Part shown: positions 7,765 to 27,421 of the stretch, one piece after another
Layout: each line of letters begins with the position of its first letter
Numbering within the stretch: the first letter of the stretch is position 1
Virus record (IMG/VR): IMGVR_UViG_3300043908_002087
Span: 1 to 29,376 of that record
Length of the DNA: 29,376 bases
Source of the DNA: a virus
Lineage: Duplodnaviria > Caudoviricetes
Strand: one strand, 5' to 3'
Notes under the pieces: model-generated
The model's database searches: none
The model's input: only the letters and a program-made list of their open reading frames with translations
What the model was told of the DNA's origin: nothing
Made by a program: the position numbers and the translations under genes

Positions 7765-7777
7765 TAACAGTGTTGGG

Positions 7778-7813
7778 TATAACACTTTGCACTTTTTTTT
7801 ACATTAATAGTAT
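7778..7813 (+). promoter_or_regulatory. Putative phage late promoter, copy 1 (TATAACACTTT-N9-TTTACATTAATAGTAT)
   Basis: Identical bipartite motif with identical spacing at 27386-27421; both precede structural operons. Confidence 0.75.
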
Positions 7814-7831
7814 ACAATTACAATTAAAAGT

Positions 7832-15232: not shown

Positions 15233-16302
15233 GAAATTTTAACAAAGATTTTTCAGATAGGTATAAAAAAGAAAGGGGAAACCCTAGATACAGATTAACT
15301 GAAGATGAAGCAAACATTATTCAGCAATATAGAAGGGTAAAAGAAGAAGCTAAAAGTGAGGGTTTAAACCCAAATGATGTACACAGTGGTTGGATAAAAT
15401 CTAAAAATGCAAGTTTATATTTTAAGAATGCAAATTTTAGATCAAGAGATTTAAAACAATTCAAAGAAGATTTAATTCAAGAGCTTCAGCAGTATGCACC
15501 AGAGTTTAAATACATTGAAAAGCCAAAGGTTAGTGATGGACATTTACTGTTGATATCACCAGCAGATATTCACATTGGTAAATTATGTAAAAGTTTTATA
15601 AGTGGTGAGGAATACAACAAGCAGAAAGCTGTAATTAGAACGCTTGAAGGTGTACAAGGTTGCCTAGATAAAAGCAGAGGTTTTAACATAGATAAAATAC
15701 TTCTTGTTATTGGCAATGATGTGATGCACATTGATAGTTTTAGCAACAAAACCACAAGAGGAACTGAGCAAGATGTCGACGGAATGTTCTTTGAGCATTT
15801 TCACATTGCTAAAAGGTTGTATATTAATATCATTGAAATGCTGTTGGCATTTTATCCAGATTTACATATTATGTATAACAGCAGTAACCACGACTATTTA
15901 ACTGGTTTTATGTTAGCAGATGTAATTGCTACATATTTTAAGAATAATAAGAACATAAGTTTTGATATTAGCTTACAATACAGGAAGTATTACAAGTATA
16001 AAAACAATTTAATCGGCAGTACTCACGGTGATGGTGCAAAGTGGGATTTATTGCCTATGCTTATGGCTGATGAATGCAAGGATTGGAGCAAGTGTAAGTA
16101 CAGATATATGTTTACTCACCACGTTCATCACAAAATAAATAAAGATTATGTTGGTTTGTCACTTGAAAGCTTACGCAGTCCATCACCAGCAGATAGATGG
16201 CATTCAAAATACGGTTATACTTCATCTAACAATCAAGCAATAGAAAGCTTTATATTCTCAAAAAACAATGGTCAGGTAGCAAGGTTAACACATTTATTTT
16301 AA
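15229..16302 (+). CDS. Calcineurin-like metallophosphoesterase (357 aa)
   Basis: DIHIG, GND..H.D, SNHD, HGD and HHVHH metal-binding motifs. Confidence 0.85.
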   Translation: MRNFNKDFSDRYKKERGNPRYRLTEDEANIIQQYRRVKEEAKSEGLNPNDVHSGWIKSKNASLYFKNANFRSRDLKQFKEDLIQELQQYAPEFKYIEKPKVSDGHLLLISPADIHIGKLCKSFISGEEYNKQKAVIRTLEGVQGCLDKSRGFNIDKILLVIGNDVMHIDSFSNKTTRGTEQDVDGMFFEHFHIAKRLYINIIEMLLAFYPDLHIMYNSSNHDYLTGFMLADVIATYFKNNKNISFDISLQYRKYYKYKNNLIGSTHGDGAKWDLLPMLMADECKDWSKCKYRYMFTHHVHHKINKDYVGLSLESLRSPSPADRWHSKYGYTSSNNQAIESFIFSKNNGQVARLTHLF

Positions 16303-16320
16303 TTTTTTTTTATTTAAGTA

Positions 16321-16352
16321 TTGTATATTTATAATTATTATTTATATATTTA
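16321..16352 (+). promoter_or_regulatory. Putative host (Bacteroidota primary sigma) early promoter
   Basis: TTG-N21-TATATTTA resembles the -33 TTTG / -7 TAnnTTTG consensus; AT-rich gap at the start of the early region. Confidence 0.6.
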
Positions 16353-16369
16353 CAAAAAACATTACAACT

Positions 16370-17598: not shown

Positions 17599-17953
17599 TA
17601 CTTTGTTTCAAAAGTATGAGCTTGATGTTGAAGATACATTTAAGCACAAACACTATCACATAATCACAAGAAGTGGTATTGATAAAATTCAAGCAAGAGC
17701 AGAGATTTCAATTAATTATGATCTTAAGCATTATAATCCAGATTTAAAAACCTGTATAATCAAAGCAACAGGTAAATGCAATGATGTAGAGATACAAACC
17801 TACGGTGAGTGTTCCCCTGAAAACAACAGAAATGCTTATCCAGTAGCCATTGCAGAAAAGAGAGCAATGAGCAGAATAGTTCTAAAGCTATGTGGTTTTT
17901 ATGAGCTTGGGGTGTTTGGAGAAGATGAAAGCGAATCCTTTAAAAATAATTAA
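17576..17953 (+). CDS. Putative single-strand annealing protein (Rad52/Sak-like fold, 125 aa)
   Basis: YPVAIAEKRAMSRIVLKLCGFY motif; adjacent to exonuclease and SSB. Confidence 0.5.
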   Translation: MNRKEQLNTLFQKYELDVEDTFKHKHYHIITRSGIDKIQARAEISINYDLKHYNPDLKTCIIKATGKCNDVEIQTYGECSPENNRNAYPVAIAEKRAMSRIVLKLCGFYELGVFGEDESESFKNN

Positions 17954-17954
17954 G

Positions 17955-18653
17955 ATGAAAAAAGATAGATTAAGTTATTCAGCATTAAGTGCTTTTAGTA
18001 AATCCCCAAATCATTTATTAAGCTATTGGAACAAGGAAGAAACACCTCCAACAGATGCACAGGAGTTTGGCAAACTGTTGCATAAAATGGTACTTGAACC
18101 TGAAGAGCTATTGCGAGAGTATATTCAATATGAAGGAAGAAGAGCTGGTAAAGCTTGGGCAGAGTTTCAAGAAAGGCATCCAAGCAAAACAATTGTAACT
18201 ACAAAATTGTACAATCATTGTTATAAAACCTATAGCAAAGCTTTAGAAAATAAAGTATTTAAAGATTTACTATCCAAAACAACTGAAACTGAAAAGCACA
18301 TAGAATGGCAGTGCAAGGGTGTAAACTTTCACGGGTTTGTTGATATGGTTGGAGAAGGTTTTATTGCTGATATTAAAACAACAACTGATGCTGGAGAAAG
18401 GTTTGAAAGAGATTTGTACTATGACAATCTTGGGTATATAATGCAGGGTGCAATGTATTTGGAAGCATTTCCAAAAGATACTGTTTACTATATTATTGCA
18501 ATTGAAAAATCAGAACCTTACAATGTTCAGGTGTATGAATTATCTGAAAAATCAATTTACAGAGGAGTTGAAAAATACAATGATTTGGTTGATGCATTCA
18601 AAGAATGGGATGGGCAGCCAATGAGTTACAGTAGTGAAATAAAATTAATCTAA
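17955..18653 (+). CDS. PD-(D/E)XK exonuclease (RecE/DUF3799-like)
   Basis: LSYSAL, FGKLLH.MVLEP, E...HGFVD, IADIKTT, YIMQGAMY motifs; ATG 17955 is the more plausible start. Confidence 0.85.
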   Translation: MKKDRLSYSALSAFSKSPNHLLSYWNKEETPPTDAQEFGKLLHKMVLEPEELLREYIQYEGRRAGKAWAEFQERHPSKTIVTTKLYNHCYKTYSKALENKVFKDLLSKTTETEKHIEWQCKGVNFHGFVDMVGEGFIADIKTTTDAGERFERDLYYDNLGYIMQGAMYLEAFPKDTVYYIIAIEKSEPYNVQVYELSEKSIYRGVEKYNDLVDAFKEWDGQPMSYSSEIKLI

Positions 18654-18920: not shown

Positions 18921-19203
18921 ACTTAACCTTGAAAGGTACTATAAAATACTATCCCTAAAATCAAGGGGTTACAGTGATAATGAAATAAAACACATTACTG
19001 GGTTAAATCTTGTAACAGTTAGGAAGTATTTATACTACTATGAATTCAAACATAAAAAGGGAGATTATGTCTCCCTTAATTCAAAACAAGAACCCTATTA
19101 CAAAGATGAAATGAAGTATGGAAGCATTCCAACTTACAACTTTGATGATCTGAGTGAAACAGAAAAAGAACTTTATTACAACAACTTAAAAAAAAATAAC
19201 TAA
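18850..19203 (+). CDS. Helix-turn-helix protein (start uncertain, possibly 18898 or 18904)
   Basis: GYSDNEIKHITGLNLVTVRKYL HTH-like segment. Confidence 0.55.
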   Translation: MINGNLNQKLKLKVLKMVMTYHFKLNLERYYKILSLKSRGYSDNEIKHITGLNLVTVRKYLYYYEFKHKKGDYVSLNSKQEPYYKDEMKYGSIPTYNFDDLSETEKELYYNNLKKNN

Positions 19204-20408
19204 TGAATATATTAAAAGAATTTCAAGAACTTATACCACCTTTAACAAACGAAGAGTATAAACAACTTGAAAGCAATTGTTTAGAAGAAGGTATTAGAGA
19301 ACCAATTCTAACTTGGAATGATTATATAATTGATGGTCATAATAGATTTAAAATTGCTCAACAATGGAGCTTAGAATTTAAAACAGAAAGTAAAAGTTTT
19401 AATAGTGAAGATGATGTTAAAGAATGGATGATACTCAATCAATTCGGAAGACGTAATTTAACTAACTACCAAAGAACTGTTTTAGCACTACAATTAGAAG
19501 ATGTATTTAGAGCAAAAGCAAAAGAAAATCAAGCTATACAATATAAAGGAAATTCACTTTCGCAGATTTCTGCAGAAGTGAAACCAATTGATACAAGAAA
19601 AGAACTTTCAAAAGTTGCAGCAGTTTCACACGATACAATAGCTAAAGTAAAAAAGATACAAGAGAAAGCACCAGAAGAAGTAAAAGCAAAATTAAGAACA
19701 GGTGAAGTAAGTATTAATGCTGCTTATAAAGAAATAAAAAAAGAGGAAAAGAAAGAAGCAATACAAGAAGAAAGAAGAATATTAGCAGAAGAAGGTAGTA
19801 ACAAAGAAATAGAAATAGATTTTAGATTAGGTGATTTTGAAGAAGTGTTTGCAGATATTAAAGATGGTAGTATTGATTGTATAATTACTGATCCTCCTTA
19901 TCCAAAAGAGTTTTTAGAATGTTGGACAAAACTATCAAGGTTTGCTAAAAGAGTTTTAAAACCTAATGGTTTTTGTATAGCTTATAGCGGTCAAATGAAT
20001 TTACCAGAAGTAATGAAAAGAATGAATGAACATTTAAATTATTATTGGATTTTCAGTTTATTGCATACTGGAAATAGACAATTAATAAATGGTAGAAATT
20101 TATTTTGTGGATGGAAACCAATATTAATTTATCAGAATAATTTTAGTAAAATAAAAAAACCAATGGATGATTTTATTACAGGTACAGGTATAGAAAAAAA
20201 ATATCATAAATGGCAACAAGCTGAAATTGAATTAAATTATATTATTGAAAATTTTACTAATATTGGTGATACAATACTTGAACCATTTGCTGGTGGTGGA
20301 ACAACTATATTAGCTTCATTAAATAATAAAAGAAATGTTATTGCTTCTGAAATTATAGAAGAATCATATAATATTTGTAAAAAAAGAATAGCGGAATGGA
20401 AAAGTTAG
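19203..20408 (+). CDS. ParB-like domain fused to N6A/N4C DNA methyltransferase (401 aa)
   Basis: N-terminal GIREPI...IIDGHNR...NQFGRRNL plus HTH; C-terminal IITDPPY and ILEPFAGGGTT (beta-class motif order). Confidence 0.9.
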   Translation: MNILKEFQELIPPLTNEEYKQLESNCLEEGIREPILTWNDYIIDGHNRFKIAQQWSLEFKTESKSFNSEDDVKEWMILNQFGRRNLTNYQRTVLALQLEDVFRAKAKENQAIQYKGNSLSQISAEVKPIDTRKELSKVAAVSHDTIAKVKKIQEKAPEEVKAKLRTGEVSINAAYKEIKKEEKKEAIQEERRILAEEGSNKEIEIDFRLGDFEEVFADIKDGSIDCIITDPPYPKEFLECWTKLSRFAKRVLKPNGFCIAYSGQMNLPEVMKRMNEHLNYYWIFSLLHTGNRQLINGRNLFCGWKPILIYQNNFSKIKKPMDDFITGTGIEKKYHKWQQAEIELNYIIENFTNIGDTILEPFAGGGTTILASLNNKRNVIASEIIEESYNICKKRIAEWKS

Positions 20409-20794: not shown

Positions 20795-21207
20795 TTGAAC
20801 TACCATACTTTAAATTCTTTCCCAACCAATGGTTAACAGGAACAATTGCTTTTCAAAACTTTGATGTACAAGGTGCATTTATGAGAGTATGCTGCTTTTA
20901 CTGGAGCAAGGGGTGTAAGGTTTCCAACAGTGAACTTAAAAATATTGTTGGAGATTATTACGATAAATTATTAGAAACTAATTTAATTAAAGTTGAGAAC
21001 AAACTAATAAAGATTAAGTGGTTAGATGAACAGTTTGAAGAAAGAAAAACAGCACACCAAAAAAGAGTTAAAGCTGGAAGATTAGGTGGTAAGCAAAGCT
21101 CAAGCAATGCTCAAGCATTAAGAAAAGATAAGAAAAGAAAAGATAACTATGCTAATGATAATGTTTTGAGAGTTAGTGATGATATTAAAAAACTGCTTAA
21201 AAAATGA
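20791..21207 (+). CDS. Replication initiator (YdaU/DUF1376-like, lambda O-analogue, 138 aa)
   Basis: LPYFKFFP..WL.G.I...QGAF...CC.YW N-terminus, AGRLGG motif, internal iteron-like repeats, upstream of helicase. Confidence 0.75.
   Translation: MIELPYFKFFPNQWLTGTIAFQNFDVQGAFMRVCCFYWSKGCKVSNSELKNIVGDYYDKLLETNLIKVENKLIKIKWLDEQFEERKTAHQKRVKAGRLGGKQSSSNAQALRKDKKRKDNYANDNVLRVSDDIKKLLKK
21091..21144 (+). repeat. Origin-like element inside the initiator gene: 11-bp iterons + AAGAW pentamers
   Basis: AAGCAAAGCTC AAGCAATGCTC AAGCATT then AAGAA AAGAT AAGAA AAGAA AAGAT. Confidence 0.7.
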
Positions 21208-22062: not shown

Positions 22063-22809
22063 ATGAATTTAATAAAAGGAGATTGTTTAGAAGTTATGAA
22101 GTCAATACCAGACGCTTCAGTAGATGCTATTTTAACAGATCCCCCTTACGGAACAACAGCTTGTAAATGGGATAGTGTTATAGATTTTGATTTGATGTGG
22201 AAACAACTTAATAGAATAATAAAGTCTAACGGTGCAATAGTTTTATTTGGTAGTGAGCCATTTAGTAGTGCTTTAAGAATGAGTAATATAAATAATTATA
22301 AGTATGATTGGATATGGATAAAAAACAAAGGAGGTAATTTTTTTAATGCAAAAAAAATGCCTTTAATAGAGCACGAAATTATTTCAGTTTTTTACAATAA
22401 ATTACCAACTTACAATCCACAAATGCAAAAGAGAACAAAAATGAGTTTAGCAAGGGTAAAGTCATCAGCAATTATTGGAGGTAGTGTGAAGGAAGGTTCT
22501 GTCTATGGTAACAGTATTAAAACTAAAAAAAAATATCAAGAATTAAGAAACCCTTCATCATACCAAGAATTTAATGTTGAAAGAGGAAAACACCCAACAC
22601 AAAAACCAGTTTCTTTAATGGAATACTTAATTTTAACTTACACCAACGAAAACGAAACTGTTTTAGATTTTACTATGGGTAGTGGTTCTACAGGTGTGGC
22701 TTGTGTAAATACTAAAAGATATTTTATAGGTATTGAATTAGATAATAAATATTTTGAGATTGCTAAAAAAAGAATAGAACAACATAAACAACAACTAAGA
22801 TTATACTAA
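22063..22809 (+). CDS. DNA methyltransferase, N6_N4_Mtase beta class (248 aa)
   Basis: GDCLEVM, ILTDPPYG, HPTQKPV, VLDFTMGSGSTG, FIGIE motifs. Confidence 0.95.
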   Translation: MNLIKGDCLEVMKSIPDASVDAILTDPPYGTTACKWDSVIDFDLMWKQLNRIIKSNGAIVLFGSEPFSSALRMSNINNYKYDWIWIKNKGGNFFNAKKMPLIEHEIISVFYNKLPTYNPQMQKRTKMSLARVKSSAIIGGSVKEGSVYGNSIKTKKKYQELRNPSSYQEFNVERGKHPTQKPVSLMEYLILTYTNENETVLDFTMGSGSTGVACVNTKRYFIGIELDNKYFEIAKKRIEQHKQQLRLY

Positions 22810-23327: not shown

Positions 23328-23672
23328 ATGAATGCAAATAAAAAAGGTAAAAGATTTGAATTGCAAGTAGCAAAGTATTTAAGCAAAGAATTTGGATCAG
23401 AAATAAGAAGAACTCCAAACAGTGGGGGTTTAAGTATTAAGGGTGATATTATGGCAACTCAGGGAATACTATCAGAGTTTAATTGGGAGTGTAAGAACCA
23501 AGAAAAGCTAAACATCTGGAAGGCATTAGAACAGTCAGCTAATGATTGCATTGGTTCACATAAACAGCCATTAGTAGTGTTTACAAAGAACTTTGAAAAA
23601 GATTATGTTGCATTAAGGTTAGAAGATTTTACACAATTATTATTAGAATTAGAACAGTTAAGGAATGAATGA
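23328..23672 (+). CDS. Holliday junction resolvase-like PD-(D/E)XK nuclease (114 aa)
   Basis: KGKRFE, RRTPNSGG, GDI, WECKN motifs. Confidence 0.8.
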   Translation: MNANKKGKRFELQVAKYLSKEFGSEIRRTPNSGGLSIKGDIMATQGILSEFNWECKNQEKLNIWKALEQSANDCIGSHKQPLVVFTKNFEKDYVALRLEDFTQLLLELEQLRNE

Positions 23673-24037: not shown

Positions 24038-24541
24038 TTGTCACATAATGAGGTTCTTAATATCTTGGCACAACATCAGAAAAAATGGGAAGCAATGGCA
24101 AACAAGCTGCTGTACCAAAACACTGAGTTAAACCCTATTGATATTGTACAAGATATGTATATAAAGGTCTTTGATGACTTAACAAACAATGAACTTCAAA
24201 TTGAAAACTTAATTGTAAACAACAAACCACATTTTGGAATTGTTAAAACTATACTTAAAAGAATAATACAAGTAAAAAGTAAAAACAAGAACAAAAAAGT
24301 AAGTTTAAATAATTCACATAAACAAATAGCTGATTCACAAGAACAGCAAGAAGATATTGAAAAAAAGATTGATGAGGTACTTAACACTATGTATTGGTTT
24401 GATAGAAAGTTATTTAACCTATATAGAAAAGAATTTCACAGTATTAGAAAACTCAGCAAGGCAACAAAAATAAGTCACGCAACCGTTCATAAAACAATAG
24501 CAAAATGCAAACAGGAACTAAAAAACAAAATAAAACTGTAA
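24038..24541 (+). CDS. ECF-type sigma-70-like factor, probable late transcription factor (167 aa, TTG start)
   Basis: Region-2-like DIVQDMYIK and region-4 HTH SIRKLSKATKISHATVHKTI; at the early/late boundary. Confidence 0.75.
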   Translation: MSHNEVLNILAQHQKKWEAMANKLLYQNTELNPIDIVQDMYIKVFDDLTNNELQIENLIVNNKPHFGIVKTILKRIIQVKSKNKNKKVSLNNSHKQIADSQEQQEDIEKKIDEVLNTMYWFDRKLFNLYRKEFHSIRKLSKATKISHATVHKTIAKCKQELKNKIKL

Positions 24542-25319: not shown

Positions 25320-25658
25320 GCAAATGAACAAAATTTAATATCATTTAAAAAAGGACAGTCAGGAAATCCAAATGGCAGACCAAAAGGAAGCAGAAACAGA
25401 AGCACAATTGTAAAGGAAGTTTTACAAATGCTTAGTAAAGAAGATAATCCATTAACAGGCCAAGAAGAATGGTTAACCAATGAGCAAAGAATGACAATAA
25501 GCATACTACTCAAAGCTTTGAAAGGTGATGTAAATGCATACAAGGCTTTGATGGATTCAGCTTATGGTACAGCAAGAGATACTGTTGATATTAACAGCAA
25601 TGAAAAGAGAAGTATTGATTTCAAACATTTAATAAGTGGAATTAAAGCTAAGCAATAA
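25317..25658 (+). CDS. terS: Terminase small subunit (113 aa)
   Basis: FKKGQSGNPNGRPKG motif, KALKGD..AYK.LMD..YG; overlaps terL start. Confidence 0.8.
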   Translation: MANEQNLISFKKGQSGNPNGRPKGSRNRSTIVKEVLQMLSKEDNPLTGQEEWLTNEQRMTISILLKALKGDVNAYKALMDSAYGTARDTVDINSNEKRSIDFKHLISGIKAKQ

Positions 25659-26841
25659 ATATTTAGTATTAGAAAATGATACTAGATACTTTATTTGCAC
25701 AGGTGGAAGAGGTTCAGGCAAATCCTTTGCAATAAACACACTACTTACACTTCTAACTTATGAGCAAGGGCATAAGATACTATTTACTAGATATACATTA
25801 AGAGCTGCTAGTATATCAATCATTCCAGAGTTTATTGAAAAGCTAGAACTACAAAAGATTGAGCAAGATTTTCACATTACAAAAGATGAAATCATAAACA
25901 AGCAAACTGGCAGTAAAATACTATTCAGAGGAATTAAAACAAGTTCAGGAGACCAAACAGCAAACTTGAAATCTTTGCAAGGTGTTACTACTTGGGTGTT
26001 GGATGAAGCTGAAGAATTAACTGATGAAAGTATATTTGATAAAATAGATTTATCCATCAGGCAAAAGGACAAAGACAACAGAGTAATATTAATACTAAAC
26101 CCAACCACAAAAGAAAACTTTATTTACCAAAGATTCTTTGAAGCAAGGGGTGTTGAAGCTGGTAGCAATATTATTAAGGATGATACAACCTACATACATA
26201 CAACTTATTTAGATAACATAGAAAACCTTTCAGAAAGCTATATTAAACAAATAGAGCAAATGAAAAAACGTAGACCAAACAGATACAAGCATACTATCTT
26301 AGGAAGTTGGTTAGATAAAGCAGAAGGTGTTATTTACAACAATTGGAGTATTGGAGAATTTAAGCAAGTTGGTAAAATAGTATTTGGTCAGGATTATGGG
26401 TTTAGCAATGATCCAAGCACATTAATTAAAACAAGCATAGATAAGGATAATAAGATTATTTATGTACAACAATGCTTTTATCAAACAAAGCTTACAACAA
26501 GTGAGATTGCAGTATTAAATAAAAAGTATGCTGGTGATAATTTAATAGTTGGTGATAGTGCTGAACCAAGATTAATAAATGAGTTAAGCAGACATAACAA
26601 AGTTGTTCCAGCAATCAAAGGACAGGGCAGTATTACTTATGGGATTAGTTTGCTACAGGATTATGATTTAGTAATTACTGAAGATAGTGTTGAGTTAATT
26701 AAAGAACTTAACAACTATTGTTGGTTAGAAAAGAAAAGCCAAACACCTTGTGATAATTGGAATCATTGCCTGGATGCATTAAGGTATGCAGTAAGTTATC
26801 AGTTGCAAAATCCAAACAGTGGAGAATATTTTCTTTATTAG
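25636..26841 (+). CDS. terL: Terminase large subunit (PBSX/SPP1-like, 401 aa)
   Basis: Walker A GGRGSGKS, Walker B WVLDEAEE, LNP, HTTYLDN, nuclease GQDYGFSNDP, DSAEP, NHCLDALRY. Confidence 0.97.
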   Translation: MELKLSNKYLVLENDTRYFICTGGRGSGKSFAINTLLTLLTYEQGHKILFTRYTLRAASISIIPEFIEKLELQKIEQDFHITKDEIINKQTGSKILFRGIKTSSGDQTANLKSLQGVTTWVLDEAEELTDESIFDKIDLSIRQKDKDNRVILILNPTTKENFIYQRFFEARGVEAGSNIIKDDTTYIHTTYLDNIENLSESYIKQIEQMKKRRPNRYKHTILGSWLDKAEGVIYNNWSIGEFKQVGKIVFGQDYGFSNDPSTLIKTSIDKDNKIIYVQQCFYQTKLTTSEIAVLNKKYAGDNLIVGDSAEPRLINELSRHNKVVPAIKGQGSITYGISLLQDYDLVITEDSVELIKELNNYCWLEKKSQTPCDNWNHCLDALRYAVSYQLQNPNSGEYFLY

Positions 26842-26864
26842 CAAAAAACAGCTCTCAACAGAGG

Positions 26865-26923
26865 AAGCAATGCTTAACCAATGCCCAAGCATTAAGATAA
26901 GATAAAATAAGATAAGATAAGAT
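26865..26923 (+). repeat. Second, intergenic origin-like element: 11-bp iterons + six AAGAT-type pentamers
   Basis: AAGCAATGCTT AACCAATGCCC AAGCATT then AAGAT AAGAT AAAAT AAGAT AAGAT AAGAT; colinear with 21091-21144. Confidence 0.8.
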
Positions 26924-26945
26924 GTAAAAAAAAGTTGTAAAATGT

Positions 26946-26976
26946 TTTGTAGTTTGTAAATATATTTATATATTAG
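26946..26976 (+). promoter_or_regulatory. Putative host-type (Bacteroidota) promoter
   Basis: TTTG-N19-TATATTAG; shares TTGTA and TATTTATATATT with the 16321-16352 promoter. Confidence 0.6.
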
Positions 26977-26999
26977 CATTGTATTTAAAAACAAACAAA

Positions 27000-27224
27000 A
27001 TGAAATTAGTAAAAGAACATAGCAGATTGACACAAGTTAAAGAAGGTAATAGAATTGTATTTAAGGTTTTAGAATCAAGAAATGGTAAAAGATTTCATAG
27101 TATGTACAAAGGAGGATTTGGAATTGTACCTGATTGTAACTCTTTTGAGGAATGTATTGAAAAAACATTTAAAAAATTACACATAATAAATGAAGATTTT
27201 AAAAACAGATTAATTAGAATTTAA
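27000..27224 (+). CDS. Orphan hypothetical protein (74 aa, MKLVKEHSRL...)
   Basis: ATG 27000 with AAACAAACAAA context is better than TTG 26979; has its own promoter and terminator. Confidence 0.7.
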   Translation: MKLVKEHSRLTQVKEGNRIVFKVLESRNGKRFHSMYKGGFGIVPDCNSFEECIEKTFKKLHIINEDFKNRLIRI

Positions 27225-27362: not shown

Positions 27363-27385
27363 GTACAAACTTTTTTAATTTTGTA

Positions 27386-27421
27386 TATAACACTTTACTA
27401 AAAAATTTACATTAATAGTAT
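27386..27421 (+). promoter_or_regulatory. Putative phage late promoter, copy 2
   Basis: TATAACACTTT-N9-TTTACATTAATAGTAT, same as 7778-7813; runs into the ATG at 27420. Confidence 0.75.

Follow-up and report, generated by a model that had tools for sequence, protein, structure and literature searches.

Two co-varying copies of a likely replication origin, inside and outside the likely initiator gene of a phage

A likely replication origin inside the likely initiator gene of a small marine phage is present as a second, co-varying copy in the intergenic region downstream of its large terminase gene (terL). Comparison of this phage with its relatives suggests that a single initiator probably uses both copies as origins, and that the intergenic copy probably suffices on its own. 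A layout of two sites is in itself already known; a natural series of phages with the site inside the gene, in both places, or in the intergenic region only was not found in the literature that we searched.

The DNA analyzed here (IMG/VR record IMGVR_UViG_3300043908_002087; 29,376 nucleotides, hereafter the window) is a circular phage genome of 29,186 bp with a 190-nt terminal repeat. Among cultured phages, Nonlabens phage P12024 has the closest terL (53%), and homologues of the initiator occur in phages of Leeuwenhoekiella, Flavobacterium and Cellulophaga. These cultured relatives of terL and the initiator, the sole basis for assigning a host, point to marine Flavobacteria. A scan of genome contigs for prophage hosts yielded six loci, all on MAG contigs with uninformative or implausible labels.

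Table 1 Features of the window discussed in the text.
Feature	Position	Strand	Remarks
Exonuclease	17892-18653		PHROGs; possible part of an SPP1-like restart set, with the RusA-like resolvase
Likely replication initiator, 138 aa	20791..21207	+	N-terminal domain resembling a winged helix, then a long helix, a linker whose codons hold the origin, and a short C-terminal tail
Codons 86-96, predicted iteron-reading helix	21046..21078	+	Within helix H76-97 of AF2 model; motif type tracks iteron type
In-gene iterons (11-nt near-palindromes: two full, one half)	21091..21119	+	Synonymous sites near-fixed
In-gene pentamers, rich in purines (AAGAW x5); likely unwinding element	21120..21144	+	Constrained by stop avoidance
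C-terminal tail of initiator, putative helicase-recruiting peptide	21145..21204	+	Tail type travels with helicase type
DnaB-like helicase, 285 aa	21204..22061	+	PHROG 19, E=7e-9; PHROG 18375, E=5e-20; Pfam ATPase/KaiC
RusA-like Holliday junction resolvase	23328..23672	+	PHROG 244, E=3e-25; PHROG 412, E=3e-37
Terminase large subunit (terL)	25636..26841	+	Pfam Terminase_3, Terminase_3C; PHROG 2; landmark upstream of intergenic copy
Intergenic iterons (11-nt units: two full, one half)	26865..26893	+	Conserved, co-varying in relatives
Intergenic pentamer tract (six units), likely unwinding element	26894..26923	+	T-rich
Moron cassette: promoter-like AT-rich leader, small ORF from ATG 27000	26930..27224	+	Directly after intergenic copy

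Two copies of one element in the window

The original prediction described an iteron and pentamer array inside the initiator gene that recurs, in the same order, as a free-standing copy after terL. The duplication is real: positions 21091-21146 and 26865-26920, on the same strand and 5,774 nt apart, are identical at 48 of 56 positions, with the order of parts shared by both copies and the flanks unrelated. The in-gene copy (21091-21144) contains two full 11-nt units and half of another, followed by five pentamers, and the intergenic copy (26865-26923) repeats this order but has six pentamers. A perfect palindrome around a central A, also part of the prediction, is found in the first intergenic unit. 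The tract adjoining the iterons is AT-rich and strand-biased, with 87% purine on one strand. When 40-nt windows of the genome were ranked by helix stability, the in-gene tract fell within the least stable 10.8% and the intergenic tract within the least stable 1.1%.

The copies align without gaps at a score of 32, whereas 60 local codon-block shuffles gave no score above 17 and 97 other 110-nt windows of the genome none above 16; a chance match was rejected on these grounds. An assembly artefact was rejected as well, since in all four seawater runs checked (two of which are possibly the source of the window) contigs bridge each copy and no joint connects the two. Remnants of an initiator pseudogene are not found beside the intergenic copy, whose flanks show no similarity to those of the in-gene copy, and an origin of the copy as such a remnant was thus dismissed. 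An 84-aa minus-strand ORF (26779-27033) overlaps the intergenic copy; it is unlikely to be a gene because gains and losses of 5-nt and 11-nt units in relatives would break its frame.

The initiator, its tail and the helicase

The 138-aa protein is likely a replication initiator, on the basis of weak family and fold matches together with its genomic context, the stronger of the two. Its AF2 model (pLDDT 70) contains helices, a beta-hairpin and a long helix at residues 76-97. Fold matches were weak and of a generic wHTH type (best Z 5.4; N-terminal domain of DnaD, Z 4.6-4.7), and a Foldseek search returned no match at E<=0.001. The label YdaU/DUF1376, given to the protein originally, stands as a weak match: the ESM Atlas places the protein at 0.95 to a DUF1376-named cluster, with 171 shared features and DUF1376 on 30% of the members, but Pfam DUF1376 (PF07120) did not match the window protein, the morran homologue reached 19.5 bits against a curated cut-off of 30.1, and weak matches were obtained in 6 of 22 relatives (best E=4e-4). 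As for the context, six related loci carry a protein of another family in the initiator slot, each with repeats and a purine-rich tract that belong to it and with similar types of C-terminal tail. The locus also has lambda-type traits, namely near-palindromic repeats in the linker-coding part of the gene, an adjacent AT-rich strand-biased tract and a helicase gene after the initiator.

The initiator and helicase ORFs overlap by 4 nt, with no loader gene between them, and tail types, which vary together with helicase types, are common to window-type initiators and unrelated initiator families. The tail of the initiator may, from these sequence comparisons, be the part that recruits the helicase. 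A PDB sequence search with the helicase gave no match. At 285 aa, and with no primase domain, the helicase is short; in the cultured relatives the initiator is followed by primase-helicases of 600 aa or by a different partner. Of an SPP1-like restart set of exonuclease, annealase, SSB and RusA-like resolvase, the exonuclease and the resolvase were identified with PHROGs, and the candidates for an annealase (17576) and an SSB (18666) had no matching family hit.

The pentamer tract is also a crossover point (21120-21204 in the window; L006, L014 and L044 among relatives). The N-terminal part of the L006 initiator is 97% identical to that of the window but is joined to a different tail and followed by a helicase that is 57% identical, and L044 has a full 204-aa initiator on a window-type N-terminus. 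Identical tail types were found on three unrelated initiator families.

Three states among related phages

Related loci were gathered by initiator, terL and motif searches. This yielded 62 distinct loci in which the helicase, terL and the post-terL interval are covered, 56 of them with a window-type initiator; L209 is included in this census and was, together with L034 and L075, left out of the site alignment (interval not covered). Both copies were present in 42 of the 56 loci, an in-gene copy only in seven and an intergenic copy only in seven, while no locus had neither; four were classed by eye (L082, L084 and L103 as both, L386 as intergenic only). An intergenic copy in related genomes, which the original prediction had proposed to look for, is therefore conserved. 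The proportions of the three states are biased: 49 loci, none of which was devoid of both copies, were found independently of the motif, and the remaining seven, which include five of all seven intergenic-only loci, only through the motif or tract search. All relatives in this comparison are metagenomic contigs, and their viability is assumed.

Searches of whole records gave the same picture. A single, intergenic tract was detected in G006 (100% complete), G007 (97%), G009 (86%), and G008 and G011 (both with direct terminal repeats); a single, in-gene tract in G001, G003, G004, G013, G014 and G015; and exactly two sites in five of five two-copy records. The in-gene site of G002 was missed at whole-record stringency and is visible in the site alignment.

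How the in-gene site can be lost is illustrated by L386 and its two-copy near-sister L052, in which 92 of the first 104 initiator residues are identical and terL is 98% identical. A 39-nt in-frame deletion removes the in-gene site of L386, and the intergenic site is retained. L053, another contig, encodes a shortened protein identical to that of L386. The sole, intergenic site of L056 equals the intergenic site of the window in size. In the initiator tree (97 columns, with many unresolved forks and L221 on a long branch) the intergenic-only L056, L221 and L203 group lie on separate branches, and they differ in linkers and tails. Their placement suggests that the in-gene site was lost independently in about four lineages.

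The second copy was absent from all six loci with another initiator family in the slot, and from all four cultured phages with full-length homologous initiators (phi10:1 and Nekkels_1 being read over about 50 of 53 kb). Since these ten and L205 have only the in-gene site, the in-gene state is, judged from this distribution, likely to be ancestral. In Nonlabens phage P12024S, whose terL is related, the replication module is a different one and terL is followed by no gap. The L095 lineage (L095, L318 and L468, with L320 similar) has no copy after terL, and L095 itself has a short in-gene site. The intergenic copy thus seems not always to be needed, although these are fragments that may carry a copy elsewhere, and each site may suffice alone.

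Across the family the two copies are 4.6-8.3 kb apart, and the intergenic site lies 29 to over 1,100 nt from terL in relatives. The moron cassette that follows it in the window is absent from L006 and L014, and L004 has a different ORF at that place; in other relatives morons are found on either side of the copy. A switch linking replication to the adjacent promoter or to packaging was among the functions originally offered for this site. Lying as it does after terL and ahead of the first structural gene, the site might couple the initiator to late transcription or DNA packaging. Two very distant terL clades do keep it in place, with terL on one side and the homologue of ORF 27420 on the other, and a promoter-like motif precedes 27420. 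However, such a coupling sits poorly with the variable distance from terL and the morons on either side, with the absence of the site from phages that have the same terL and structural genes, and with a site sequence that tracks the in-gene site and not terL. The assembled contigs of the seawater runs showed no genome ends. We consider such a coupling very improbable.

Selection on the DNA of the in-gene site

The original prediction held that the motif is selected as DNA, and pointed to pentamers of the coding copy in which A replaces T. The codon table bears out that T at 21124 or 21139, but not at 21134, would create an in-frame TAA. In 41 two-copy loci, pentamer T was found at none of the 64 positions where a stop would arise, compared with 83 of 112 free in-gene positions and 149 of 214 intergenic ones. 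Codon choice in the in-gene site is likewise restricted, with a top-codon share of 0.97 (12 columns) versus 0.74 (57; p=1e-5) among 22 dereplicated genes. Avoidance of T only where it would give a stop, together with near-fixed synonymous codons, supports selection on the DNA, and the near-fixation implies that in two-copy phages the in-gene copy is more than a relic.

These constraints also bear on the possibility that one site fires and the other regulates, by titration or handcuffing or, in two-copy phages, through an in-gene roadblock on the initiator-helicase transcript. A site of the titration or handcuffing type is known from P1 (incA). The in-gene site of two-copy phages is short, with two full units in 39 of 41, in comparison with three to four full units and seven to eight pentamers in most in-gene-only phages (these read by eye, as the automatic iteron counter undercounted their irregular arrays), and it melts less easily, yet its synonymous sites are near-fixed; all of this would suit a regulatory site. 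Yet titration needs no unwinding tract, both sites keep the tract in exact register, and each site stands alone in some relatives. A regulatory role of this kind is therefore quite unlikely to be the whole explanation, although it is compatible with the reading of the intergenic site as an origin.

The two copies co-vary with each other and with a predicted recognition helix

Co-variation of the copies, a further check proposed with the original prediction, was evident. Mismatches per unit to the other copy in the same phage were 1.9, compared with 2.9-3.6 when copies were shuffled among phages (n=28, 14 and 9 clusters; p<=3e-4), and partial Mantel correlations between the copies, controlled for distance in the initiator and in terL, were r=0.67-0.87. 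The flank after terL is common to L060 and L330, which differ in iteron type, each matching its own in-gene site. Co-variation with the initiator was only partly as proposed: it is seen with the motif at residues 86-96 and is weak with the N-terminal 95 residues as a whole (intergenic copy, terL held: r 0.17-0.30, significant only at the finest clustering).

In 21 of 24 phages with G/C-spacer iterons, the intergenic unit is nearer to the reverse complement of the in-gene unit than to a direct copy of it. This is the match expected for a site read by a dimer and one that direct copying would not give, and gene conversion was rejected as the cause of the co-variation for this reason. The matching also bears on whether the second copy is a duplication that is neutral and homogenized through gene conversion, or a low-complexity match due to chance. 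The tract is of low complexity and short repeats do recombine, but the score of 32 exceeds all controls, differences between the copies are fixed within lineages, units match as reverse complements, and the intergenic copy persists where the in-gene donor is gone. A neutral or chance origin is exceedingly improbable, and appears largely refuted by the co-variation, the near-fixed synonymous sites and the reverse-complement matching.

The motif in the predicted helix varies with iteron type. Initiators of the KRVxAG type occur with A/T-spacer iterons, those of the RNVxNG type with G/C-spacer iterons and those of the K[IV]NAxNG type with 4-nt-spacer iterons; the cultured Arctus_1 combines a KRVxA motif with A/T-spacer iterons (read by eye), and an exception is L051, with a mixed intergenic site. 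This match is inflated by linkage in two-copy phages, because the helix adjoins the in-gene site, so that only intergenic-only phages, with no in-gene site to hitch-hike with, provide an independent test. There the match holds in L056 and L386 and partly in L221. If true, this would amount to a natural recognition code of three helix motifs for three iteron types, re-coded at both sites, and a DUF1376-like protein without tested function would gain both a DNA site and a predicted recognition helix.

How the two sites may work and how they may have arisen

Of the functions originally offered for the second copy, that of a second origin is the best match, given that some complete genomes have the intergenic copy and no other; such genomes are hard to reconcile with a site used purely for titration or with a packaging or promoter switch. 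If such phages are viable, their intergenic site must fire, as they have no other copy. In the mechanism that we propose, dimers of the initiator would use helix 86-96 to bind the 11-nt near-palindromes, melting would take place in the neighboring tract of purine-rich pentamers, and the short tail of the initiator would recruit the DnaB-like helicase, encoded by the overlapping ORF, without a separate loader.

The origin may at first have resided within the gene, as it does in lambda. Once copied into the moron hotspot after terL, it would have been free of coding limits there and would melt more easily, and the in-gene site could then have been lost in about four lineages. Most phages retain both sites, each of them under selection, and probably do so because an additional place to fire or restart raises the amount of progeny DNA. 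Initiation that is faster or more robust, restart as in SPP1, and autoregulation through the in-gene site are all candidate reasons for keeping both. We rate the chances as even that in this abundant family of marine phages the origin left the gene in these steps (in-gene, duplicated, and then intergenic after an in-frame deletion, in about four lineages), with a short helix of a minimal initiator of 130-140 aa re-coding both sites together.

Three natural genotypes within one initiator family, including near-identical sisters one deletion apart, make the function of a second origin directly testable. The family also offers very small replicons for the genetics of marine Flavobacteria, with a 138-aa initiator, a 285-aa helicase and an origin of about 60 bp.

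Comparison with known replication systems

The closest parallel in layout is SPP1, in which, according to the available parts of the sources, oriL is inside gene 38, oriR is in a moron-bearing intergenic segment of the late region, and both are bound by gp38 (PMC6316719, PMC3485210, PMC5615212). The window resembles SPP1 in having a second site of the same organization (direct repeats together with an AT-rich element) outside the initiator gene in a moron-bearing late segment, and in the presence of a DnaB-family helicase, an exonuclease and a RusA-like resolvase. The differences are that the copies are 4.6-8.3 kb apart in the window family as opposed to about 12-13 kb; that SPP1 has the loader gp39 between initiator and helicase, where the ORFs of the window overlap; that the window family has a 138-aa DUF1376-like initiator, 11-nt near-palindromic iterons and a pentamer tract; and that it includes single-site relatives of either kind, intergenic-only ones among them, which are not reported for SPP1 in the portions of these papers available (PMC6316719, PMC3485210, PMC5615212). 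As the likeness is one of layout and gene content and there is no loader gene, we do not classify the window as an SPP1 member.

The parallel raises the possibility of a division of labor of the SPP1 type, in which the in-gene site fires, whereas at the intergenic site the bound initiator acts as a fork block and sets off a recombination-driven switch to concatemer (sigma) replication. The shared position of the site, in SPP1 a moron-bearing intergenic segment of the late region as far as described in the accessible text (PMC6316719, PMC3485210), the exonuclease and RusA-like resolvase of the window, and the selection on both sites would all agree with this. However, a resolvase homologue is kept by single-site phages of both kinds (12 of 15 loci with a single site or a shortened gene, the others being partial or distant), so that a second site is not needed for concatemers, and in intergenic-only genomes it is the intergenic site that has to fire. 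For SPP1 oriR, too, the part of PMC6316719 available to us presents the barrier role as a proposal, and the window family offers a test of second origins of the SPP1 type. We find a strict division of labor unlikely; a fork block may be a side role of the intergenic site in two-copy phages.

In lambda, two iterons with the AT-rich region are the smallest fragment for unwinding, and in gene O of lambda and Stx phages palindromic iterons and an AT-rich tract lie in the part coding for the initiator linker, the length of the linker varies with the number of iterons, and an N-terminal DNA-binding part is joined to a C-terminal part on the helicase side (PMC7466680, available part). The window initiator is alike in these respects. 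However, lambda has one origin and a separate loader, P, whereas the C-terminal domain of the window initiator is about 20 residues long and the origin can be duplicated or lie wholly outside the gene. The lambda rule that the origin is kept inside the initiator gene can thus be broken.

Among cultured phages, Arctus_1 (Leeuwenhoekiella), morran9-1 (Flavobacterium), and phi10:1 and Nekkels_1 (both Cellulophaga) have an N-terminal domain 30-44% identical to that of the window initiator and in-gene repeats followed by a purine-rich tract. They differ in that their initiators are 227-286 aa long, with a C-terminal domain, and no second copy was found in them. Extra arrays of initiator-binding repeats away from the main origin are present in P4 (ori/crr), R6K (alpha/beta/gamma) and P1 (incA), where the P4 crr, R6K and incA arrays are co-required or purely regulatory sites. 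In contrast, each site of the window family is found alone in some genomes, and both have the unwinding tract. Our literature search, which covered few subscription journals, turned up papers on SPP1 and lambda but no report on the window-type initiator family or on an origin moved out of its initiator gene.

Further observations

Short repeats followed by an AAGAT pentamer tract were also found in other viral contigs with no match to this initiator (L184, L187, L196, L199, L202, L247, L250, L254 and L296). Since the tract occurs in these arrays without this initiator, several initiator families may, from its distribution, use it as a general motif for unwinding.

In this phage family the terL position is held by two very distant clades (about 30% identical), and the intergenic site follows both (L052, L056, L080, L083 and the L203 group versus the window). 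Relatives differ greatly in the moron slot after terL. AT-rich promoter-like leaders that are alike precede the first early gene (16297-16366) and the moron (26930-26975), and a scan of the window for sigma-70 promoters and terminators gave a result no better than chance. A motif GTATA..AACAC, followed by TACATTAATAGTAT, is common to 7775-7815 (before the head operon) and 27383-27420 (before ORF 27420), and may be a late promoter for the sigma-like protein encoded at 24038-24541. Two N6/N4 DNA methyltransferase genes (19203-20408 and 22063-22809) flank the replication genes, one of them with a fused ParB-like domain.

Finally, an ACAGA(G/T) motif (26856-26864 in the window) precedes the intergenic iterons in several distant lineages (L014, L056, L080, L203, L050 and L070). 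In L050 and L070 this motif stays beside terL, with the iteron array further downstream.
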